Positions 10,455 to 18,826 of a DNA stretch of 26,266 nucleotides are shown in pieces. A model generated the notes under the pieces. That model did not search any database. It was not told where the DNA came from and worked only from the letters and a program-made list of their open reading frames with translations. This DNA comes from a virus. Taxonomy: Duplodnaviria; Heunggongvirae; Uroviricota; Caudoviricetes. The DNA is taken from the IMG/VR virus record IMGVR_UViG_2563366988_000001; one strand, 5' to 3'. Numbering within the stretch: the first letter of the stretch is position 1; each line of letters opens with the position of its first letter. Position numbers and translations under genes: made by a program.

Positions 10455-13400
10455 ATGGGTAAAGGCAGCAGTAAGGGGCATACCCCGCGCGAAGCGAAGG
10501 ACAACCTGAAGTCCACGCAGCTGCTGAGTGTGATCGATGCCATCAGCGAAGGGCCGGTTGAAGGTCCGGTGGATGGATTAAAAAGCGTGCTGCTGAACAG
10601 TACGCCGGTGCTGGACAGTGAGGGGAATACCAATATATCCGGCGTCACGGTGGTGTTCCGGGCCGGTGAGCAGGAGCAGACTCCGCCGGAGGGATTTGAA
10701 TCCTCCGGTTCCGAGACGGTGCTGGGTACGGAAGTGAAATATGACACGCCGATCACCCGCACCATCACGTCGGCAAACATCGACCGTCTGCGCTTTACCT
10801 TCGGTGTGCAGGCACTGGTGGAAACCACCTCAAAGGGGGACAGGAATCCATCGGAAGTCCGCCTGCTGGTTCAGATACAACGTAACGGTGGCTGGGTGAC
10901 GGAAAAAGACATCACCATTAAGGGTAAAACCACCTCGCAGTATCTGGCCTCAGTGGTGGTGGATAACCTGCCGCCGCGCCCGTTTAATATCCGGATGCGC
11001 AGGATGACGCCGGACAGCACCACAGACCAGCTGCAGAACAAAACGCTCTGGTCGTCATACACCGAAATCATCGATGTGAAACAGTGCTACCCGAACACGG
11101 CACTGGTCGGCGTGCAGGTGGACTCGGAGCAGTTCGGCAGCCAGCAGGTGAGCCGTAATTATCATCTGCGCGGGCGTATTCTGCAGGTGCCGTCGAACTA
11201 TAACCCGCAGACGCGGCAATACAGCGGTATCTGGGACGGGACGTTTAAACCGGCATACAGCAACAACATGGCCTGGTGTCTGTGGGATATGCTGACCCAT
11301 CCGCGCTACGGCATGGGGAAGCGTCTCGGTGCGGCGGATGTGGACAAATGGGCGCTGTATGTCATCGGCCAGAATTGCGACCAGTCGGTGCCGGATGGCT
11401 TTGGTGGCACGGAGCCGCGCATCACCTGTAATGCCTGGCTGACCACGCAGCGCAAGGCGTGGGATGTGCTCAGTGATTTCTGCTCGGCGATGCGCTGTAT
11501 GCCGGTATGGAACGGGCAGACGCTGACGTTCGTGCAGGACCGGCCATCGGATAAGGTGTGGACCTATAACCGTAGTAATGTGGTGATGCCGGATGATGGC
11601 GCGCCGTTCCGCTACAGCTTCAGCGCCCTGAAGGACCGTCATAATGCCGTTGAGGTGAACTGGATTGACCCGAATAACGGCTGGGAGACGGCGACAGAGC
11701 TTGTGGAGGACACGCAGGCCATTGCCCGTTACGGTCGTAACGTCACGAAGATGGATGCCTTTGGCTGTACCAGCCGGGGGCAGGCACACCGCGCCGGGCT
11801 GTGGCTGATTAAAACAGAACTGCTGGAAACGCAGACCGTGGATTTCAGCGTCGGCGCAGAAGGGCTTCGCCATGTACCGGGTGATGTTATTGAAATCTGC
11901 GATGATGACTATGCGGGGATCAGCATTGGCGGGCGCGTGCTGGCGGTGAACAGCCAGACCCGGACGCTGACGCTCGACCGTGAAATCACGCTGCCATCCT
12001 CCGGTACCACGCTGATAAGCCTGGTTGACGGGCAGGGGAGTCCGGTCAGCGTGGAGGTTCAGTCCGTCACCGACGGCGTGAAGGTGAAAGTGAGTCGGGT
12101 TCCTGACGGCGTTGCCGGATACAGCGTGTGGGGGCTGAAGCTGCCGACGCTGCGCCAGCGCCTGTTCCGCTGTGTGAGTATCCGTGAGAACGATGACGGC
12201 ACGTATGCCATCACTGCCGTGCAGCATGTACCGGAAAAAGAAGCCATCGTGGATAACGGGGCGCACTTTGACGGCGACCAGAGCGGCACGGTGAATGGTG
12301 TCACGCCGCCAGCGGTGCAGCACCTGACCGCCGAAGTCACCGCAGACAGCGGGGAATACCAGGTGCTGGCGCGCTGGGATACGCCGAAGGTGGTGAAGGG
12401 CGTGAGCTTTATGCTTCGCCTGACCGTGGCAGCGGATGACGGCAGTGAGCGGCTGGTCAGCACGGCCCGGACGACGGAAACCACATACCGCTTCAGGCAG
12501 CTGGCTCTGGGAAATTACAGTCTGACAGTCCGGGCGGTAAATGCGTGGGGGCAGCAGGGCGATCCGGCGTCGGTATCGTTCCGGATTGCCGCACCGGCAG
12601 CGCCATCGCGGATTGAGCTGACGCCGGGCTATTTTCAGATAACCGCCACGCCGCATCTTGCGGTTTATGATCCGACGGTACAGTTTGAGTTCTGGTTCTC
12701 GGAAAATCGGATTGCGGATATCAGGCAGGTTGAAACCAGCGCGCGTTATCTTGGCACGGCGCTGTACTGGATAGCCGCCAGTATCAATATCAAACCGGGC
12801 CATGATTATTATTTTTACGTTCGCAGTGTGAACACCGTCGGCAAATCGACATTCGTGGAGGCTGTCGGTCGGGCGAGCGATGATGCGGAAGGTTACCTGG
12901 ATTTTTTCAAAGGCAAGATAACCGAATCCCATCTCGGCAAGGAGCTGCTGGAAAAAGTCGAGCTGACGGAGGATAACGCCAGCAGACTGGAGGAGTTTTC
13001 GAAAGAGTGGAAGGACGCCAACGATAAGTGGAATGCCATGTGGGCTGTCAAAATTGAGCAGACCAAAGACGGCAAACATTATGTCGCGGGGCTTGGCCTC
13101 AGCATGGAGGACACGGAGGAAGGCAAACTGAGCCAGTTCCTGGTTGCCGCTAACCGTATCGCATTTATTGACCCGGCAAACGGGAATGAAACGCCGATGT
13201 TTGTGGCGCAGGGCAATCAGATATTCATGAACGAAGTGTTCCTGAAATATCTGACGGCTCCCACCATTACCAGCGGCGGTAATCCTCCGGCATTTTCCCT
13301 GACACCGGACGGGCGGCTGACGGCGAAAAATGCCGATATCAGCGGTAACGTGAATGCGAACTCCGGGACGCTCAACAACGTCACGATTAACGAGAACTGC

Positions 13401-13850
13401 CGGGTTCTGGGAAAACTGTCCGCGAACCAGATTGAAGGCGATCTCGTTAAAACAGTGGGCAAAGCTTTCCCCCGTGACTCCCGAGCACCGGAGCGGTGGC
13501 CATCAGGGACCATTACCGTCAGGGTTTATGACGATCAGCCGTTTGACCGGCAAATTGTTATTCCGGCGGTGGCATTCAGTGGCGCTAAGCATGAGAGAGA
13601 GCATACTGATATTTACTCCTCATGCCGTCTGATAGTGCGGAAAAACGGTGCTGAAATTTATAACCGTACCGCGCTGGATAATACGCTGATTTACAGTGGC
13701 GTTATTGATATGCCTGCCGGTCACGGTCACATGACACTGGAGTTTTCGGTGTCAGCATGGCTGGTAAATGGCTGGTATCCCACAGCAAGTATCAGCGATT
13801 TGCTGGTTGTTGTGATGAAGAAAGCCACTGCAGGCATCACGATTAGCTGA
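10455..13850 (+). CDS. J: Central tail fibre / host specificity protein J
   Basis: 1131 aa starting [54 protein letters not shown], matches lambda gpJ (1132 aa). Confidence 0.95.
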
Positions 13851-13917: not shown

Positions 13918-14517
13918 ATGCGTAAATTATGTGCTGTTATTCTGTCCGCAGTAGTCTGGCTGGTTGCCGCTGGTACGCCAGCGAGCGCAGCAGAGCATCA
14001 GTCCACACTAAGCGCCGGGTATCTTCAGACCCATACTGATATGCCAGGCAGTGATGACCTGAAGGGCATTAACGTGAAATACCGTTATGAATTTACGGAC
14101 ACGCTGGGGCTGGTGACGTCATTCAGTTATGCCAATGCCAAAGATGAGCAAAGAACGCATTACAGCGATACCCGCTGGCATGAAGATTCAGTGCGTAACC
14201 GCTGGTTCAGCATGATGGCGGGGCCATCTGTACGCGTGAATGAATGGTTCAGTGCTTATGCGATGGCAGGTGTGGCTTACAGCCGTGTTTCGACGTTCTC
14301 CGGGGATTATCTCCGCGTAACTGACAACAAGGGGAAAACGCACGATGTGCTGACCGGAAGTGATGACGATCGCCACAGCAACACGTCTCTGGCGTGGGGA
14401 GCTGGCGTGCAGTTTAACCCGACCGAATCCGTGGCCATTGATATTGCTTATGAAGGCTCCGGCAGTGGCGACTGGCGCACTGACGGTTTCATCGTGGGTG
14501 TCGGTTATAAGTTCTGA
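13918..14517 (+). CDS. lom: Outer membrane protein Lom (Ail/Lom/PagC family beta-barrel)
   Basis: 199 aa with signal peptide MRKLCAVILSAVVWLVAAGTPASAAEH and C-terminal GYKF; matches lambda Lom from memory. Confidence 0.92.
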   Translation: MRKLCAVILSAVVWLVAAGTPASAAEHQSTLSAGYLQTHTDMPGSDDLKGINVKYRYEFTDTLGLVTSFSYANAKDEQRTHYSDTRWHEDSVRNRWFSMMAGPSVRVNEWFSAYAMAGVAYSRVSTFSGDYLRVTDNKGKTHDVLTGSDDDRHSNTSLAWGAGVQFNPTESVAIDIAYEGSGSGDWRTDGFIVGVGYKF

Positions 14518-14543
14518 TTAGCCAGGTAACACAGTGTTATGAC

Positions 14544-14571
14544 AGCCCGCCGGTTCAGGCGGGCTTTTTTG
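14544..14571 (+). terminator. Intrinsic terminator after lom (AGCCCGCC-ggttca-GGCGGGCT then TTTTTT)
   Basis: 8-bp perfect GC-rich stem followed by a T-run. Confidence 0.7.
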
Positions 14572-14581
14572 TGGAGTGGAT

Positions 14582-16957
14582 ATGGCAGCAGTAAAAATCT
14601 CAGGTGTGCTGAAAGATGGTGCGGGAAAACCAATACAGAACTGCACTATTCAACTGAAGGCAAAGCGTAACAGCACCACGGTACTGGTGAACACGGTGGC
14701 TTCTGAAAATCCGGATGAAGCCGGACGTTACAGCATGGATGTTGAGTATGGCCAGTACAGCGTCACCCTGCTGGTTGAAGGTTTTCCGCCTTCACATGCC
14801 GGGACCATTACCGTCTATGAAGGCTCCAGACCAGGTACGCTGAATGATTTTCTCGGTGCCATGACGGAAGATGATGTCATGCCGGAGGCATTGCGTCGTT
14901 TTGAGGAAATGGTGGAAGAAGCGGCACGCAACGCTGAAGCCGCCTCTCAGAGCGCAGCGGCGGCAAAGAAATCCGAAACTGCAGCGGCATCATCGAAGAA
15001 CGCGGCGAAAACCTCAGAAACGAATGCAGCTAATAGTGCACAGGCGGCAGCGACCTCAAAGACTGCATCGGCAAACTCCGCGACAGCAGCCAAAAAATCA
15101 GAAACCAACGCGAAAAATAGCGAGACAGCCGCAAAGACGAGCGAAACCAACGCAAAGTCCAGCCAGACGGCAGCGAAAACCAGCGAAACGAATGCCAAAG
15201 CCAGTGAAACTGCGGCAAAAAACAGCCAGGTTGCAGCAGCCCAAATCGAGAGCGCGGCAGCCGGTTCTGCGACTTCAGCAGCTGGATCAGCAACTGCTGC
15301 GGCTAACAGCCAGAAAGCTGCGAAGACGAGTGAAACTAACGCAAAGTTCAGCCAGACGGCAGCGAAGACCAGCGAAACGAATGCCAAAGCCAGCGAAACT
15401 GCGGCGAAAAACAGTCAGGATGCAGCAGCCCAAAGCGAGAGTGCTGCAGCTGGTTCTGCAAGCGCGGCGGCTGCTTCTGCCACTGCATCAGCCAACAGTC
15501 AAAAAGCAGCAAAAACCAGTGAAACCAATGCAAAGACAAGCGAGACTGCAGCGGCGAACTCGGCGAAAGCATCGGCAGCAAGCCAGACAGCAGCTAAAGC
15601 AAGTGAAGACGCAGCCAGAGAGTATGCAAGTCAGGCAGCAGAGCCGTATAAATATGTCTTACAGCCGCTGCCTGATGTGTGGATACCATTTAACGATTCG
15701 CTGGATATGATTACGGGCTTTTCGCCATCATATAAAAAAATTGTTATTGGTGACGATGAAATAACGATGCCTGGCGACAAGATTGTTAAGTTTAAACGTG
15801 CATCGAAAGCAACCTATATTAACAAATCTGGTGTGCTGACAGAGGCTGCCATTGACGAGCCACGATTTGAACGTGATGGCCTGCTTATTGAGGGGCAAAG
15901 AACAAACTACATGCTCAATTCGGAAAGCCCTGCAAGTTGGGGGCGATCATCAAATATGGATGTGCCCGAAACAGGGACGGATAATTTTGGTTTTACCTAT
16001 GGAAAGTTTGTCTGCAACGATTCTCTGATTGGGCAAACCTCAGCCATTAATATGGCATCAATTGCTGCAACAAAGTCAGTTGATGTCTCAGGCGATAATA
16101 AACACGTGACAACCTCATGTCGTTTTAAAACAGAACTGCAGGTAAGGTTGCGTATCCGGTTTGATAAATATGACGGTAGCACAACAACTTTTCTTGGTGA
16201 TGCGTATATTGATACACAAACGCTTGAAATTAATATGACAGGCGGTGCTGCCTCAAGAATTACAGCGAGAGTCAGAAAGGACGAAGCTACCGGATGGATT
16301 TTTGCAGAGGCAACAATTCAGGCAATTGATGGGGAGTTAAAAATAGGCTCTCAGATACAGTATTCTCCTAAGCAGAGCGGGGCAACCGTATCTGGTGACT
16401 ATATTTATCTGGCCACCCCACAAGTAGAAGATGGGCCTTGTGTATCATCTTTTATTATATCAGGAGCGACGGCGGCGACCCGCGCAAGCGATATAGTTAC
16501 AGTTCCAATTAAGAATAATCTTTATAATCTTCCTTTTACGGTTCTTTGTGAGGTACATAAGAACTGGTATAAAACGCCAAATGCAGCGCCACGTGTTTTT
16601 GATACCGGCGGTCATCAAACCGGAGCGGCTATTATTCTTGGCTTCGGTCGTTCAACAGATTACGACGGATTTCCTTATTGCGATATTGGAGGAGCTAACA
16701 GACGGGTAAACGAAAACGCATCGCTTGAAAAAATGGTTATGGGGATGCGTGTAAAGTCAGAGCAGTCTACGTGCTCAGTAAGTAACGGGCATATATCCAG
16801 CGAAACAAAAACCACATGGTCCTGTATTCAGAACACCGCAATTATCCGTATTGGAGGCCAGACTACAGCCGGGTTACGTCATTTATTTGGTCATGTCAGG
16901 AATTTTAGAATATGGCACAAGGCATTGACTGATGCTCAGGTGGGGGAGTCAATCTAA
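14582..16957 (+). CDS. stf: Side tail fibre protein (lambda Stf-like N-terminal half with alanine-rich repeats; divergent lower-GC C-terminal receptor-binding region with LamG-like features)
   Basis: N-terminus MAAVKISGVLKDGAGKPIQNCTIQLKAKRNSTT matches lambda Stf; AAKTSETNAK-type repeats; base composition visibly drops from about 15650; C-terminal ...RHLFGHVRNFRIWHKALTDAQV resembles a LamG-like jelly-roll tail. Confidence 0.88.
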   Translation: MAAVKISGVLKDGAGKPIQNCTIQLKAKRNSTTVLVNTVASENPDEAGRYSMDVEYGQYSVTLLVEGFPPSHAGTITVYEGSRPGTLNDFLGAMTEDDVMPEALRRFEEMVEEAARNAEAASQSAAAAKKSETAAASSKNAAKTSETNAANSAQAAATSKTASANSATAAKKSETNAKNSETAAKTSETNAKSSQTAAKTSETNAKASETAAKNSQVAAAQIESAAAGSATSAAGSATAAANSQKAAKTSETNAKFSQTAAKTSETNAKASETAAKNSQDAAAQSESAAAGSASAAAASATASANSQKAAKTSETNAKTSETAAANSAKASAASQTAAKASEDAAREYASQAAEPYKYVLQPLPDVWIPFNDSLDMITGFSPSYKKIVIGDDEITMPGDKIVKFKRASKATYINKSGVLTEAAIDEPRFERDGLLIEGQRTNYMLNSESPASWGRSSNMDVPETGTDNFGFTYGKFVCNDSLIGQTSAINMASIAATKSVDVSGDNKHVTTSCRFKTELQVRLRIRFDKYDGSTTTFLGDAYIDTQTLEINMTGGAASRITARVRKDEATGWIFAEATIQAIDGELKIGSQIQYSPKQSGATVSGDYIYLATPQVEDGPCVSSFIISGATAATRASDIVTVPIKNNLYNLPFTVLCEVHKNWYKTPNAAPRVFDTGGHQTGAAIILGFGRSTDYDGFPYCDIGGANRRVNENASLEKMVMGMRVKSEQSTCSVSNGHISSETKTTWSCIQNTAIIRIGGQTTAGLRHLFGHVRNFRIWHKALTDAQVGESI
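15161..15538 (+). repeat. Tandem direct repeat, 2 x 189 bp (63-aa unit), inside stf
   Basis: Unit 1 at 15161-15349 and unit 2 at 15350-15538 encode SQTAAKTSETNAKASETAAKNSQ[V/D]AAAQ[I/S]ESAAAGSA... with few substitutions; shorter 13-14 aa sub-repeats on either side. Confidence 0.85.
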
Positions 16958-17238
16958 TGAAAGATTTAACACTCAAATTTGCCGACAGGGCCGACTTTTC
17001 GGCCTTTATGGAGAGTATTGGCTATTATGATGACGAGTCGATGCAGGATGATATTCTTATTGACGTGATAGGTAACGCGTACAAAGAAACCGGAGAACTG
17101 ACTGAAGATGGCGAACCGGTATGTGTTAAGGAAGACGGATATTTTGTAAACGTGCGCATCATTAATGATTCGCAAATATCGTCATTATTCGATGAATACG
17201 TGGTTGCTGTTGAGCATCAACTTCGTGGCTGGATGTGA
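16957..17238 (+). CDS. Hypothetical acidic 93-aa protein, translationally coupled to stf; possible fibre chaperone
   Basis: ATG overlaps the stf stop (TAATG); no homolog recognised from memory; lower-GC segment. Confidence 0.6.
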   Translation: MKDLTLKFADRADFSAFMESIGYYDDESMQDDILIDVIGNAYKETGELTEDGEPVCVKEDGYFVNVRIINDSQISSLFDEYVVAVEHQLRGWM

Positions 17239-17247
17239 GGAAGAAAA

Positions 17248-18285
17248 ATGGCTACATCGACAGTAATTCCTGATGACATCAAAACGCTAAAATCCGACGT
17301 TAGCAAATTAAAAAACGATCAAGGAAGCTACGCAACAAAATTATATGTAGACAGCAAAGATGAAATCGTTGGTGACTGGTCTGCTTCATGGTATCAGCAG
17401 GTATTGCCAACTAGCGGAGCTATATTTGGGAGAAAACTCCGCTCAACTCACAGGACGGCAGGTGTTGAGGATGCGTATTGCGAACTATACCTCAAAAAAT
17501 GGATAGACAGTCCAGGTAACGCAATGGCGCGCCTTAACCTGAACGATAACGGGACAAACATTTGCTGGGACTCTACCAACCTTTATGGCGGTACGATGAT
17601 TTTTCCCGGTGACAGCGGATACCTCAAAATGGGTAACTGCCTTATGTCATACAGCAAGCGTGGAAGTAACGCGCTTATTAAATTTGATTACACCGACACA
17701 TTACAGATCAAATATGCCAATCATGGGTCAACCATGACATTAAACACACAGGGAACCGCTTATGCTGGTGTTACTGCTCAATTGTGGGGCAACTCCAGCC
17801 GTCCTGTTGTTTATGAAGTCGGTGTTGATGGTGGCGCTTATATGTTCTATGCGCAGAAAAATACCGATAACACCTATATGTTAAGCGTTAATGGTGCATG
17901 TCATGCCACCACATTTAACCAGCATTCCGACCGGGATCTGAAAGACAACATTCAGGTGATCGATAATGCAACCGACCGCATCCGTAAAATGAACGGCTAT
18001 ACATACACGCTTAAAGAAAACGGTATCCCCTATGCTGGTGTCATTGCACAGGAAGCTCTGGAAGCAATCCCAGAAGTTGTAGGTTCCGCAATGAAATATC
18101 AGGACGGTGCAAGCGGATCGGAAGGTGAAGAAGGTGAACGTTATTACACAGTAGATTATTCTGGTGTTACTGGCTTGCTTGTTCAGGTAGCCAGAGAGTC
18201 AGACGACAGGATAACAGCACTGGAAGAAGAAAACGCAGAATTAAGACAAAGATTATCTGCAATTGAGGCGGCGCTTGCGTCTTAA
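17248..18285 (+). CDS. Tail fibre/spike protein with C-terminal peptidase S74 intramolecular chaperone domain
   Basis: C-terminal motif HSDRDLKDNIQVIDNATDRIRKMNGYTYTLKENGIPYAGVIAQEALEAIPEVV matches the self-cleaving chaperone domain of endosialidases and T5 pb1 (Ser...Lys dyad, SDRxLK), followed by a coiled-coil tail. Confidence 0.8.
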   Translation: MATSTVIPDDIKTLKSDVSKLKNDQGSYATKLYVDSKDEIVGDWSASWYQQVLPTSGAIFGRKLRSTHRTAGVEDAYCELYLKKWIDSPGNAMARLNLNDNGTNICWDSTNLYGGTMIFPGDSGYLKMGNCLMSYSKRGSNALIKFDYTDTLQIKYANHGSTMTLNTQGTAYAGVTAQLWGNSSRPVVYEVGVDGGAYMFYAQKNTDNTYMLSVNGACHATTFNQHSDRDLKDNIQVIDNATDRIRKMNGYTYTLKENGIPYAGVIAQEALEAIPEVVGSAMKYQDGASGSEGEEGERYYTVDYSGVTGLLVQVARESDDRITALEEENAELRQRLSAIEAALAS

Positions 18286-18294
18286 TAATATTAA

Positions 18295-18317
18295 GGGGTC
18301 GAGCGCCCCGTTTTATT
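18295..18317 (+). terminator. Weak terminator-like hairpin (GGGGtcgagcGCCCC) plus GTTTTATT after the S74 fibre gene
   Basis: Short GC stem and T-run; overlaps the approach to the next gene's RBS. Confidence 0.3.
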
Positions 18318-18330
18318 GGGTAGGATGAAA

Positions 18331-18624
18331 ATGGATATAACACCTTTCCTTCATGCGCTTTGTGCTGTGGCTGCGCAGCTACTGATTGGTCTTTTTACCG
18401 GGAACTGGGCTTACGGGGCGATAGCCGGTTGTACGTTCTTCATTGCGCGTGAACACACCCAGGCAGAATATCGCTGGATTGAAATGTTCGGGCATGGCAA
18501 GCGAATGAATATGCCGTGGTGGGGCGGTTTTGATCCGCGCGCGTGGGATGTAGCAAGTCTGATGGATTTTGCTGTGCCGGTGGTGGCGTGTCTGCTGGTC
18601 TGGCTGTTGGTTAATCGTGGGTGA
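18331..18624 (+). CDS. Small integral membrane protein (about 97 aa, three predicted TM segments), unknown function
   Basis: ATG at 18331 with AGGA at 18322-18325; the ORF-track frame opens at 18316 (TTG). Hydrophobic stretches FLHALCAVAAQLLIGLF, AYGAIAGCTFFIA, FAVPVVACLLVWLLV. Confidence 0.6.
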   Translation: MDITPFLHALCAVAAQLLIGLFTGNWAYGAIAGCTFFIAREHTQAEYRWIEMFGHGKRMNMPWWGGFDPRAWDVASLMDFAVPVVACLLVWLLVNRG

Positions 18625-18634
18625 AAAAAGGTGA

Positions 18635-18763
18635 GCTGTATATGCAACGGAGGAAGAAACCTCGTTGCTGGAAGCCTGGAAGAAGTATCGGGTGTTGCTG
18701 AACCGTGTTGATACATCAACTGCACCTGATATTGAGTGGCCTACGAACCCTGTCAGGGAGTAA
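18635..18763 (+). pseudogene. tfa: Tail fibre assembly protein Tfa, 3' remnant (last about 40 codons, no start codon)
   Basis: Frame encodes ...[39 protein letters not shown], matching the lambda Tfa C-terminus; in-frame TGA immediately upstream at 18632-18634. Confidence 0.8.
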
Positions 18764-18777
18764 TCATTGGGATTATG

Positions 18778-18826
18778 CCGCAGCACGTCTTAAGCAAGAA
18801 CGTGCTGCGGTTGGATGCTATTTTTT
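18778..18826. terminator. Hairpin (CCGCAGCACGT-loop-ACGTGCTGCGG) plus T-run between convergent tfa remnant and methyltransferase gene; candidate bidirectional terminator
   Basis: 11-bp stem at 18778-18788 / 18800-18810, then TATTTTTT at 18819-18826; a second copy at 26089-26123 carries compensatory changes. Confidence 0.5.

Follow-up and report, generated by a model that had tools for sequence, protein, structure and literature searches.

Side tail fibres decide which surface types of Escherichia coli a temperate phage can reach, and their parts are swapped to retarget lambda-based delivery particles. The locus considered here opens with the side-tail-fibre gene stf at position 14576 of a 26,266-nucleotide stretch of tailed-phage DNA (IMG/VR record IMGVR_UViG_2563366988_000001, in its full length called the window). 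It raises the question of what has been built onto a lambda-type stf where only the last 40 codons of tfa are left, and how the parts came together. An earlier note on the same DNA had answered with a single low-GC receptor-binding cassette between the stf N-terminus and the end of tfa; this interpretation is right in outline, but too simple. We consider it likely that the locus is the mosaic side-tail-fibre (host-recognition) locus of a 2G7b-type lambdoid E. coli prophage, with an exchangeable build of two slots.

The assignment starts from identity. Positions 14500-19800 are 100% identical to Escherichia phage 2G7b (NC_049954, genus Nesevirus), a sequenced temperate phage, and the complete 5.3-kb arrangement is present in 148 of the 5426 complete E. 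coli genomes (coverage at least 80%). A literature search for '2G7b' returned no paper. The late genes follow the order J (10455-13850), lom (13918-14517) and stf (14576-16957), and the neighbours of the prophage in a matching chromosome are ompT, ybcH, nfrA and a DLP12-like remnant. The three genes downstream of stf are as the earlier note described them, all four open reading frames (ORFs) being confirmed, and the ratio of non-synonymous to synonymous substitution rates (dN/dS) of 0.06-0.23 over all four genes indicates purifying selection. The parts of the locus are the following (aa, amino acids):

14576..16957, plus strand: stf, ORF for the side tail fibre protein (proximal fibre), 793 aa from a GTG; RefSeq starts at the ATG at 14582, giving 791 aa, and annotates a 'prophage tail fiber N-terminal domain-containing protein'
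14588..14977, plus strand: lambda-type tail-attachment domain of Stf, aa 5-134 (PF08400 phage_tail_N, E = 7.3e-67)
15119..15553, plus strand: Ala/Ser/Thr/Lys-rich shaft of Stf, with a 189-nucleotide (63-aa) tandem repeat in 2.3 copies (Tandem Repeats Finder and repeat search)
15646..15662: left breakpoint of composition and homology, Stf residue ~358-362, at the start of the conserved 'PLPDVWIPFNDSL' linker
15884..16486, plus strand: Stf domain D1, aa 437-637, a carbohydrate-binding-module-like beta-sandwich; first half of variable slot 1
16487..16954, plus strand: Stf domain D2, aa 638-793, probably LamG/ConA-like; second half of variable slot 1
16957..17238, plus strand: gene of a 93-aa acidic protein (phrog_1361, E = 1e-45), translationally coupled to stf; in the conserved middle arm
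17248..18285, plus strand: ORF for a putative second (distal) short fibre of 345 aa, matching phrog_4563 over its full length
17248..17352, plus strand: conserved N-terminal anchor of the second fibre, ~35 aa, M[AV]T[SK]T.IP.DI..LK...
17926..18282, plus strand: Peptidase_S74 intramolecular chaperone domain of the second fibre, aa 227-345 (PF13884)
18331..18624, plus strand: gene of a 97-aa (97-102 aa) membrane protein (phrog_1443, E = 7e-59; 'Ybl63' in UniRef); in the conserved right arm
18644..18763, plus strand: tfa 3' remnant, the last 40 codons and the stop (18761-18763); right recombination arm

Two variable slots between conserved arms

Four phages share the same flanks, lom and the stf N-terminus on the left and a ybcY-like methyltransferase gene on the right, and differ in what lies between. 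Beyond the methyltransferase, where the retrieved loci reach that far, the right flank continues with a second tfa remnant and an alpha/beta hydrolase. Between the flanks the four hold:

PhiR29_1: a 966-aa Stf and an intact 194-aa Tfa
ev243: a 689-aa Stf, a 92-aa protein and a membrane protein
PhiR49_1: an 812-aa Stf, a 93-aa protein, a 234-aa second fibre and a membrane protein
the window and 2G7b: a 791-aa Stf, the 93-aa protein, the 345-aa S74 fibre and the membrane protein

Compared with PhiR29_1, whose Stf C-terminus differs from that of the window, homology ends near 14934 and restarts exactly at 18644. The comparison with lambdoid relatives that the earlier note had called for thus supports an exchange, and its reading of a receptor-binding module exchanged on a lambda-type stf N-terminus, with the right junction in the last 40 tfa codons, is upheld. 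A relative combining this Stf type with an intact tfa was not found. The left boundary proposed at ~15650 depends on the partner of the comparison: it agrees with the virulent Nonagvirus ESCO3, where homology begins at 15662, but not with PhiR29_1 and its breakpoint near 14934. ESCO3 shares 15662-18224 with the window at 94% identity overall and 97-100% over most of that length; the same fibre parts are hence passed between temperate and virulent phages, with nucleotide identities of 97-100%.

Indeed, the unit formed by a fibre C-terminus, a ~90-aa protein and an anchored second fibre occurs in the same order in Nonagvirus JenP1, Seuratvirus KurtStettler, the Drexlerviridae (T1-like) phage swan01, Dhillonvirus KarlBarth and Tequintavirus (T5-like) IrisVonRoten. 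These carriers show amino-acid identities to the window of 45-55% over the C-terminal 430 residues of Stf and 38-46% in the small protein; Vequintavirus EmilHeitz has the first two genes of the unit only. The locus is an ordinary, largely known kind of module exchange, and the unit circulates among many unrelated coliphages.

Within the unit, identity does not change at a single place. Nucleotide identity between PhiR49_1 and the window is 99-100% up to ~15775, falls to 50-60% over 15800-16900 and returns to 94-98% over the small gene; the second fibre then diverges after about codon 30, and the membrane protein is 94% identical. The two Stf domains also part from each other, D1 of phage 21 being 92% and its D2 42% identical to the window, with the reverse in IrisVonRoten and KarlBarth (D1 49-50%, D2 74%). 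There are two variable slots: slot 1 comprises D1-D2 of Stf, which are even singly exchangeable, and slot 2 the second-fibre body. Bordering them are three arms, namely the shaft and linker; the stf 3' end with the small gene and the ~35-codon anchor; and the membrane gene with the tfa 3' remnant. Instead of a single cassette, as the earlier note had it, we are dealing with a nested mosaic of at least two independently exchanged slots. Lambda has been shown experimentally to acquire stf/tfa DNA from prophages via relaxed homologous recombination (De Paepe et al. 2014, PMC3945230), and relaxed homologous recombination over the conserved arms is likely to be the mechanism of slot exchange here too.

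Base composition bears on the same boundaries. A single-change-point likelihood scan over 14576-18766 places a break in GC content at 15646, within stf (0.543 to the left, 0.450 to the right; log-likelihood gain 13.9), four bases from the drop at ~15650 described before, and the step in a sliding-window GC profile agrees with the scan. The values of GC and of GC at third codon positions (GC3) are 0.540/0.483 in the N-part of stf, 0.439/0.372 in its C-part, 0.422/0.436 in the 93-aa gene and 0.447/0.419 in the 345-aa gene; composition is thus not uniform, with GC3 going from 0.48 to 0.37 within stf. Low GC had been thought to extend through three genes to 18630. This holds for the first two of them, but not for the membrane-protein gene (0.537/0.541): the low-GC block stops near 18300, and the tfa remnant (GC 0.504) is not low either.

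To the right of the remnant, GC falls again (0.407 in the ybcY-like methyltransferase gene, 0.424 in the hydrolase gene), so that low GC also characterises the accessory arm of the prophage as a whole. The drop could therefore be a mere boundary between the late and the accessory arm of lambdoid genomes that happens to fall in stf, and no evidence of a foreign cassette. From 16001 up to the right end of the window, every 1-kb segment has a GC content of 0.39-0.48, an IS21-family element (0.53) excepted, as against 0.55-0.59 in the head and tail genes, which speaks for such a boundary, as does PhiR29_1, whose alternative stf C-part has a GC content of 0.55, yet whose tfa has 0.49. However, the change point lies at most 16 bases from the start of homology to an unrelated virulent phage (15662), and within the supposedly low arm the membrane gene and the tfa remnant rise to 0.50-0.54, matching a separately conserved segment. 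Because the change point adjoins the start of homology and the right-arm segment returns to 0.50-0.54, composition tracks the mosaic segments. We thus think it unlikely that the arm boundary is the whole explanation, although it and a foreign origin of the cassette are compatible with each other.

Proximal fibre, second fibre and their proposed assembly

Stf, which matches phrog_1419 'tail protein' over its full length, is a lambda-type side tail fibre by its PF08400 N-terminus and its position after J and lom. The attachment domain is 83-98% identical to those of lambdoid relatives, among them PhiR29_1 with its classic stf/tfa pair. The shaft repeat is composed of 21/42-nucleotide (7/14-aa, heptad) units, with 82% matches between copies. 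Near-identical Stf proteins in the databases have 685, 709, 727/728, 742 or 791 aa, the lengths of homologues ranging from 685 to 793 aa at the shaft, which suggests that shaft length varies through gain and loss of repeats. At residue ~362 the conserved linker (PLPDVWIPFNDSL...) opens.

The first domain behind the linker, D1, scores above the cut-off of the NCBIfam family NF048003 'GTA spike fiber' (50.3 bits versus 36, Stf residues 437-637) and matches the head spike fibre of the Rhodobacter capsulatus gene transfer agent, RcGTA (6TB9), in sequence (E = 1.1e-7). An AlphaFold2 (AF2) run on the C-terminal 429 residues of Stf, with an alignment of 21 sequences at 75-96% identity, gave a confident model for D1 alone, whose predicted fold resembles beta-sandwiches of the CBM4/22/61 type; the linker was unusable, as was D2 (predicted local distance difference test score, pLDDT, 22-35). 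Since AF2 gave no usable model of D2, the question of a LamG fold rests on sub-threshold Pfam matches. Laminin_G_3 (PF13385) is matched in eight of eight homologues, in all of them under the gathering score (best E = 8.2e-6; 18.7 bits versus 27.6 in the window), and D2 probably has a LamG-like fold. Hence the LamG-like fold that the earlier note had considered for the C-part of Stf draws support from the consistent but sub-threshold matches of D2, and none from the AF2 model, which cannot be used there. D2 ends in an invariant C-terminal motif, GGQT.G.RH..H.....W..L.D.Q (alignment columns), and its identity to homologues, 42-100%, varies independently of D1. A Pfam scan of Stf found no S74 match.

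The S74 domain is found instead on the 345-aa protein, where PF13884 scores 52.3 bits against a cut-off of 22 (E = 7e-14, residues 227-278). At the start of the domain, SDRDLK (S227-D-R-D-L-K232, S-x4-K) has a Ser with a Lys five residues downstream; this spacing of S227 and K232 we take to be that of the S74 catalytic dyad, per the endoNF work, and Ser227 is the predicted self-cleavage site. Fibres with an S74 intramolecular chaperone are of the K1F endosialidase and T5 pb1 type, and such a chaperone serves only its own chain. The S74 domain is therefore unable to replace Tfa for Stf, and the earlier suggestion that S74 self-chaperoning might do so is to be dropped. Relatives of the second-fibre head are located at the C-terminal tip of long fibres (phrog_6578, phrog_5668), and phmmer finds the C-terminus of S16 gp37 (6F45, E = 1.3e-3). 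Identity to ESCO3 (L003) is only 73-86% at 17700-18100, inside the block of 97-100%; this dip covers the outer head of the second fibre and the start of the chaperone domain, and sits where the receptor-contact surface would be expected.

Homologues of the whole second fibre occur at 68-75% amino-acid identity in JenP1 and PhiR11_1 (dN/dS 0.20-0.23). The anchor motif is common to the second-fibre genes of JenP1, PhiR11_1, PhiR49_1, IrisVonRoten (gp24) and KarlBarth (gp30) and is found by tblastn in 107 phage records, starting 9-19 nucleotides after the small gene in about 20 records among the matches listed. These data also bear on a rival view, in which the 345-aa gene is an orphan: insertion of the lectin-type end and the small gene would have severed it, as the 3' part, from an ancestral longer stf with an S74 tip, and its product would no longer be in the virion. 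Loci without the gene are common, and phrog_6578, a family of 1210-aa fibres, matches both residues 36-224 in the N-part of Stf and residues 131-341 of the 345-aa protein, so a single-chain Stf with a tip of the second-fibre type does exist. Yet the first 130 residues of the 345-aa protein have no phrog_6578 match; the gene has its own conserved start and an anchor that recurs in the 107 records, compact virulent genomes included; the S74 motif is intact; and the dN/dS relative to the homologues at 68-75% identity is that of a gene under selection. We regard an orphan as very improbable. Its simplest form, a mere 3' fragment of a 1210-aa Stf, was rejected because the first 130 residues lie outside that family and carry their own conserved anchor.

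Between the two fibre genes, the gene of the 93-aa protein overlaps the stf stop by one base with its start. The protein is strongly acidic (isoelectric point 4.05; 21 D+E versus 7 K+R). Homologues are found in 181 phage records, and of the annotated rows listed nearly all place the gene at or beside an annotated tail fibre gene; the 93-aa and the membrane protein each occur on about 1000 or more contigs. The family is small, an exhaustive search among 1.8 billion representatives yielding 49 clusters only, and dN/dS of the gene is 0.06-0.13 where measurable. An AF2 model (pLDDT 88) has beta-alpha-alpha-beta-beta-alpha topology; a structural-neighbour search with it gave no informative neighbour, and the protein has no match in PDB, Pfam, NCBIfam or PADLOC. 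A reading of the small proteins of the locus as a defence system was rejected on the PADLOC result. Between the window (16957-17238) and ESCO3 (L003 5296-5577) the small gene shows amino-acid changes and essentially no synonymous ones (dN 0.041, dS 0), mostly at residues ~72-78 (SQISSL versus VKTPSI). The ESCO3-type patch is also present in the E. coli prophage alleles P0060 and P0105, and looks like a micro-mosaic patch or a selected surface.

Gene and domain content, breakpoints, conservation, purifying selection and the occurrence of the locus in named, sequenced phages are direct observations; how the parts attach to one another, whether they bind glycans and what the 93-aa and membrane proteins do we infer. 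Stf keeps the lambda-type attachment domain and heptad shaft and, from residue ~362 on, carries a widespread coliphage lateral-fibre module of linker, D1 and D2. We propose that the lectin-type domains at the end of the Stf trimer bind a surface glycan and that, being globular, this end takes the place of the Tfa-dependent lambda tip; tfa may have decayed to a 40-codon arm because such an end presumably does not need Tfa. An assembly or joint function at the conserved Stf C-terminus would fall to the translationally coupled 93-aa protein. The 345-aa protein would be a second, distal receptor-binding fibre that trimerises via its own S74 chaperone, and cleavage of the chaperone at Ser227 would leave a mature fibre of ~226 aa, which may dock onto the Stf end by its conserved ~35-residue N-terminus. 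The resulting fibre would combine lectin-type domains with a T5-type tip; its most likely targets would be surface glycans, O-antigen for example.

Several points weigh against this proposal. D2 could not be modelled (pLDDT below 35) and its LamG assignment lies under the Pfam threshold. Domain-wise identities in nine phages show that divergence of the 93-aa protein tracks neither D1, D2 nor the anchor: the small protein of PhiR49_1 is 98% identical next to a D1/D2 of 55/43%, and that of PhiR11_1 is 32% identical next to an anchor of 86%. Co-variation thus lends no support to a specific partner of the 93-aa protein. In phage 21, ev243 and many infant-gut lambdoids, Stf and the small protein occur with no second fibre, which shows the latter to be optional and means that the small protein cannot serve solely as its adaptor. 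Finally, we know of no receptor for any allele of this module.

The same data help to choose among roles for the 93-aa protein. An assembly or joint factor at the Stf end is favoured over an adaptor for the second fibre only, because the small protein is retained in phage 21 and ev243, which have no second fibre, and because one small-protein allele serves D1/D2 alleles only 43-55% identical. Another role would be that of a structural connector, which stays in the virion on the Stf C-terminus as a docking surface for the second-fibre anchor rather than acting transiently during assembly. The small gene and the anchor are contiguous, 9-19 nucleotides apart, in every phage group examined and, joined by the stf 3' end, make up a single conserved block that separates the two variable slots; moreover, the BASEL annotators labelled IrisVonRoten gp23 'tail fiber protein'. 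The many phages with a small protein and no second fibre, phage 21 and ev243 among them, point the other way, as does the fact that small-protein and anchor divergence do not track each other, while the fold is uninformative in either direction. We lean against a permanent connector, while granting it some plausibility, and retain the assembly or joint factor as our working proposal.

For engineering, the natural cut points lie after the shaft, after the lectin domains, after the ~35-residue anchor and in the last 40 tfa codons, and these mapped junctions are practical design rules for chimeric fibres.

The right arm and its neighbours

Two further features belong to the right-hand part of the locus:

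18295..18309, plus strand: terminator-like hairpin followed by a T-run, between the second-fibre and membrane-protein genes (consensus scan)
19686..19760, plus strand: second copy of the tfa 3' segment, an 88% direct repeat of 18644-18718 (repeat search and blastn)

Terminator-like sites are no commoner in the region than expected from shuffling, which makes the hairpin weak evidence. The membrane protein behind it has hydrophobic stretches at about residues 5-38 and 76-94, is 94-100% identical in phage 21, Tritos, PhiR11_1 and PhiR49_1 (dN/dS 0.09-0.21) and has no Pfam, NCBIfam or PADLOC match. Its family, phrog_1443, is found at 18331-18624 in the window and in two of the retrieved loci (L013 3489-3788; L014 3501-3806), and has partial matches in Aeromonas jumbo phages. 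The gene closes the receptor-binding operon in lambdoids, in the P22-like JEP4 (overlapping the tailspike gene at its end) and, behind the tail fibre assembly gene, in Halomonas phage phiHAP-1; it is absent from ESCO3, JenP1 and IrisVonRoten, virulent carriers of the unit. As it follows unrelated fibres and is missing from the virulent carriers, it appears to travel with temperate receptor-binding operons whatever their fibre type.

Does the membrane protein then have a function in the fibre system, such as helping to export or assemble fibres or blocking the receptor in the lysogen, or is it a mere passenger of the right arm? Its constant last place in the operon (lambdoids, JEP4, phiHAP-1) and its purifying selection would fit a part in the system. 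Its company of tailspike, P2-type fibre and Stf, however, makes it neither receptor- nor fold-specific, and neither its absence from the virulent carriers of the three-gene unit nor the want of any Pfam, NCBIfam or PADLOC match helps such a role. We hold a function within the fibre system to be rather unlikely; a role in surface modification or exclusion is our guess.

Directly downstream of stf, no intact tfa of ~194 aa was found, only 40 codons, as the earlier note had said; RefSeq has a tfa pseudogene over the same span. The note had lambda-like sequence resume at 18635 with these last 40 codons; their number is correct, but they start at 18644, nine bases further on. The remnant is 98% identical to the end of the intact PhiR29_1 tfa. 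Its junction with the membrane gene is common to phage 21 (to 18700) and Tritos (to 18741), and ev243 and PhiR49_1 have the same right-hand gene order. The junction being shared with relatives, truncation of tfa predates this prophage, and since the junction is old and the composition lambda-like, the membrane gene belongs to the arm and not to an imported block.

The two tfa 3' copies flank the ybcY-like methyltransferase gene. In an Rfam scan for RNA elements, sub-threshold matches to IS009 on these two remnants (72 and 80 bits versus a gathering score of 117) were the only result. Strain FDAARGOS_1267 has a further set of tfa, methyltransferase and ompT just past the prophage integrase. In Tritos (L005 7286-7876) a PinR-type invertase gene follows the tfa remnant in place of the ybcY region, a hint that an invertible fibre segment existed here, or still exists, in some relatives.

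Further right, an IS21-family element (20785-22586; IstA with rve and HTH domains, and IstB) lies inside the alpha/beta-hydrolase gene, whose halves, Abhydrolase_4 and Abhydrolase_1, flank it on the minus strand (20025-20732 and 22596-23468); in phage 2G7b the gene is uninterrupted. An omptin (OmpT-family) protease gene is located at 23655-24608 (minus strand), between the hydrolase and the integrase as in 2G7b, and the chromosome of the matching strain has a second ompT close to the prophage.

Looking at the two small proteins together, one may tentatively envisage two broader readings, which we put forward as possibilities with the odds against them. The ~90-aa protein (phrog_1361) might represent a new accessory class, unrelated to Tfa, gp38, gp57A and intramolecular chaperones, which in six or more coliphage lineages would serve as a universal joint, linking lectin-tipped proximal fibres to distal fibres that can be interchanged, and the Ybl63-type membrane protein might be a general surface-modifying or exclusion factor of unrelated temperate phages.

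Comparison with known fibre systems

With lambda Stf/Tfa the locus shares the PF08400 N-terminus and the position after J and lom, whereas the receptor-binding C-terminus is unrelated and tfa is cut to 40 codons. Phage 21 (OL657228: stf, a 92-aa protein and a 'putative membrane protein') has an Stf of the same type, with a D1 at 92%, the small protein at 54% and the membrane protein at 96% identity and the same tfa-remnant junction, but it lacks a second fibre gene, has a shorter shaft and shares D2 at 42% only. D1 itself resembles the Rhodobacter capsulatus GTA head spike fibre Rcc01080 (PDB 6TB9) and carbohydrate-binding modules, by sequence and by predicted fold. Rcc01080, however, is a capsid spike of a gene transfer agent and D1 a side-fibre tip of a siphovirus, and sequence identity is low. 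The Stf-chimera paper of Brodel et al. (2024) makes no mention of this fibre type or of any accessory protein.

A build of two successive fibres is known from phages DT57C and DT571/2, in which LtfA is attached to the tail and LtfB attaches through it and adds specificity (PMC4728585, PMC10713586); as with the window's second fibre, LtfB of DT57C ends in a self-cleaving S74 chaperone (Golomidova 2016; Ayala 2023). There, both LtfA and LtfB carry S74 (PMC4728585), whereas the Stf of the window has none and ends in lectin-type beta-sandwich domains; the passages of these sources that were searched mention no small intervening gene. LtfA/LtfB was hence rejected as the matching family and is a functional analogue only.

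A matching counterpart is the composite lateral fibre of IrisVonRoten (Bas32), with three homologous genes in the same order and the distal anchor. Like the locus described here, Gp22-Gp23-Gp24 comprise a long fibre, 53% identical to the C-terminal 430 residues of Stf, a ~92-aa protein, 39% identical to the 93-aa protein, and a second fibre that begins with MxTxTxIPxDIxxLK and has a T5-like tip and an intramolecular chaperone at its end. In the models of Humolli et al. (2025, PMC11990801), Gp22 is the proximal fibre, from which a galectin-like C-terminal domain protrudes, and Gp24 is the distal receptor-binding protein on it, with a T5-like domain and an intramolecular chaperone; the attachment of Gp24 to Gp22 rests on AlphaFold-Multimer models, and the small Gp23 is not discussed. 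Maffei et al. (2021, PMC8594841) observed that conservation among the distal subunits of these lateral fibres is confined to the extreme N-terminus.

The lambdoid version differs from IrisVonRoten in its lambda-type (PF08400) instead of T5-type attachment domain, in belonging to a temperate phage, in a second fibre with a single head (345 aa) in place of a 574-aa T-shaped protein with an extra gp12-like domain, and in the added terminal membrane-protein gene and tfa remnant. Given the identity to 2G7b and an architecture already modelled for IrisVonRoten, the cassette can no longer be called, as the earlier note did, the least-characterised part of the window. Apart from its two small proteins, the locus confirms known principles rather than changing them.

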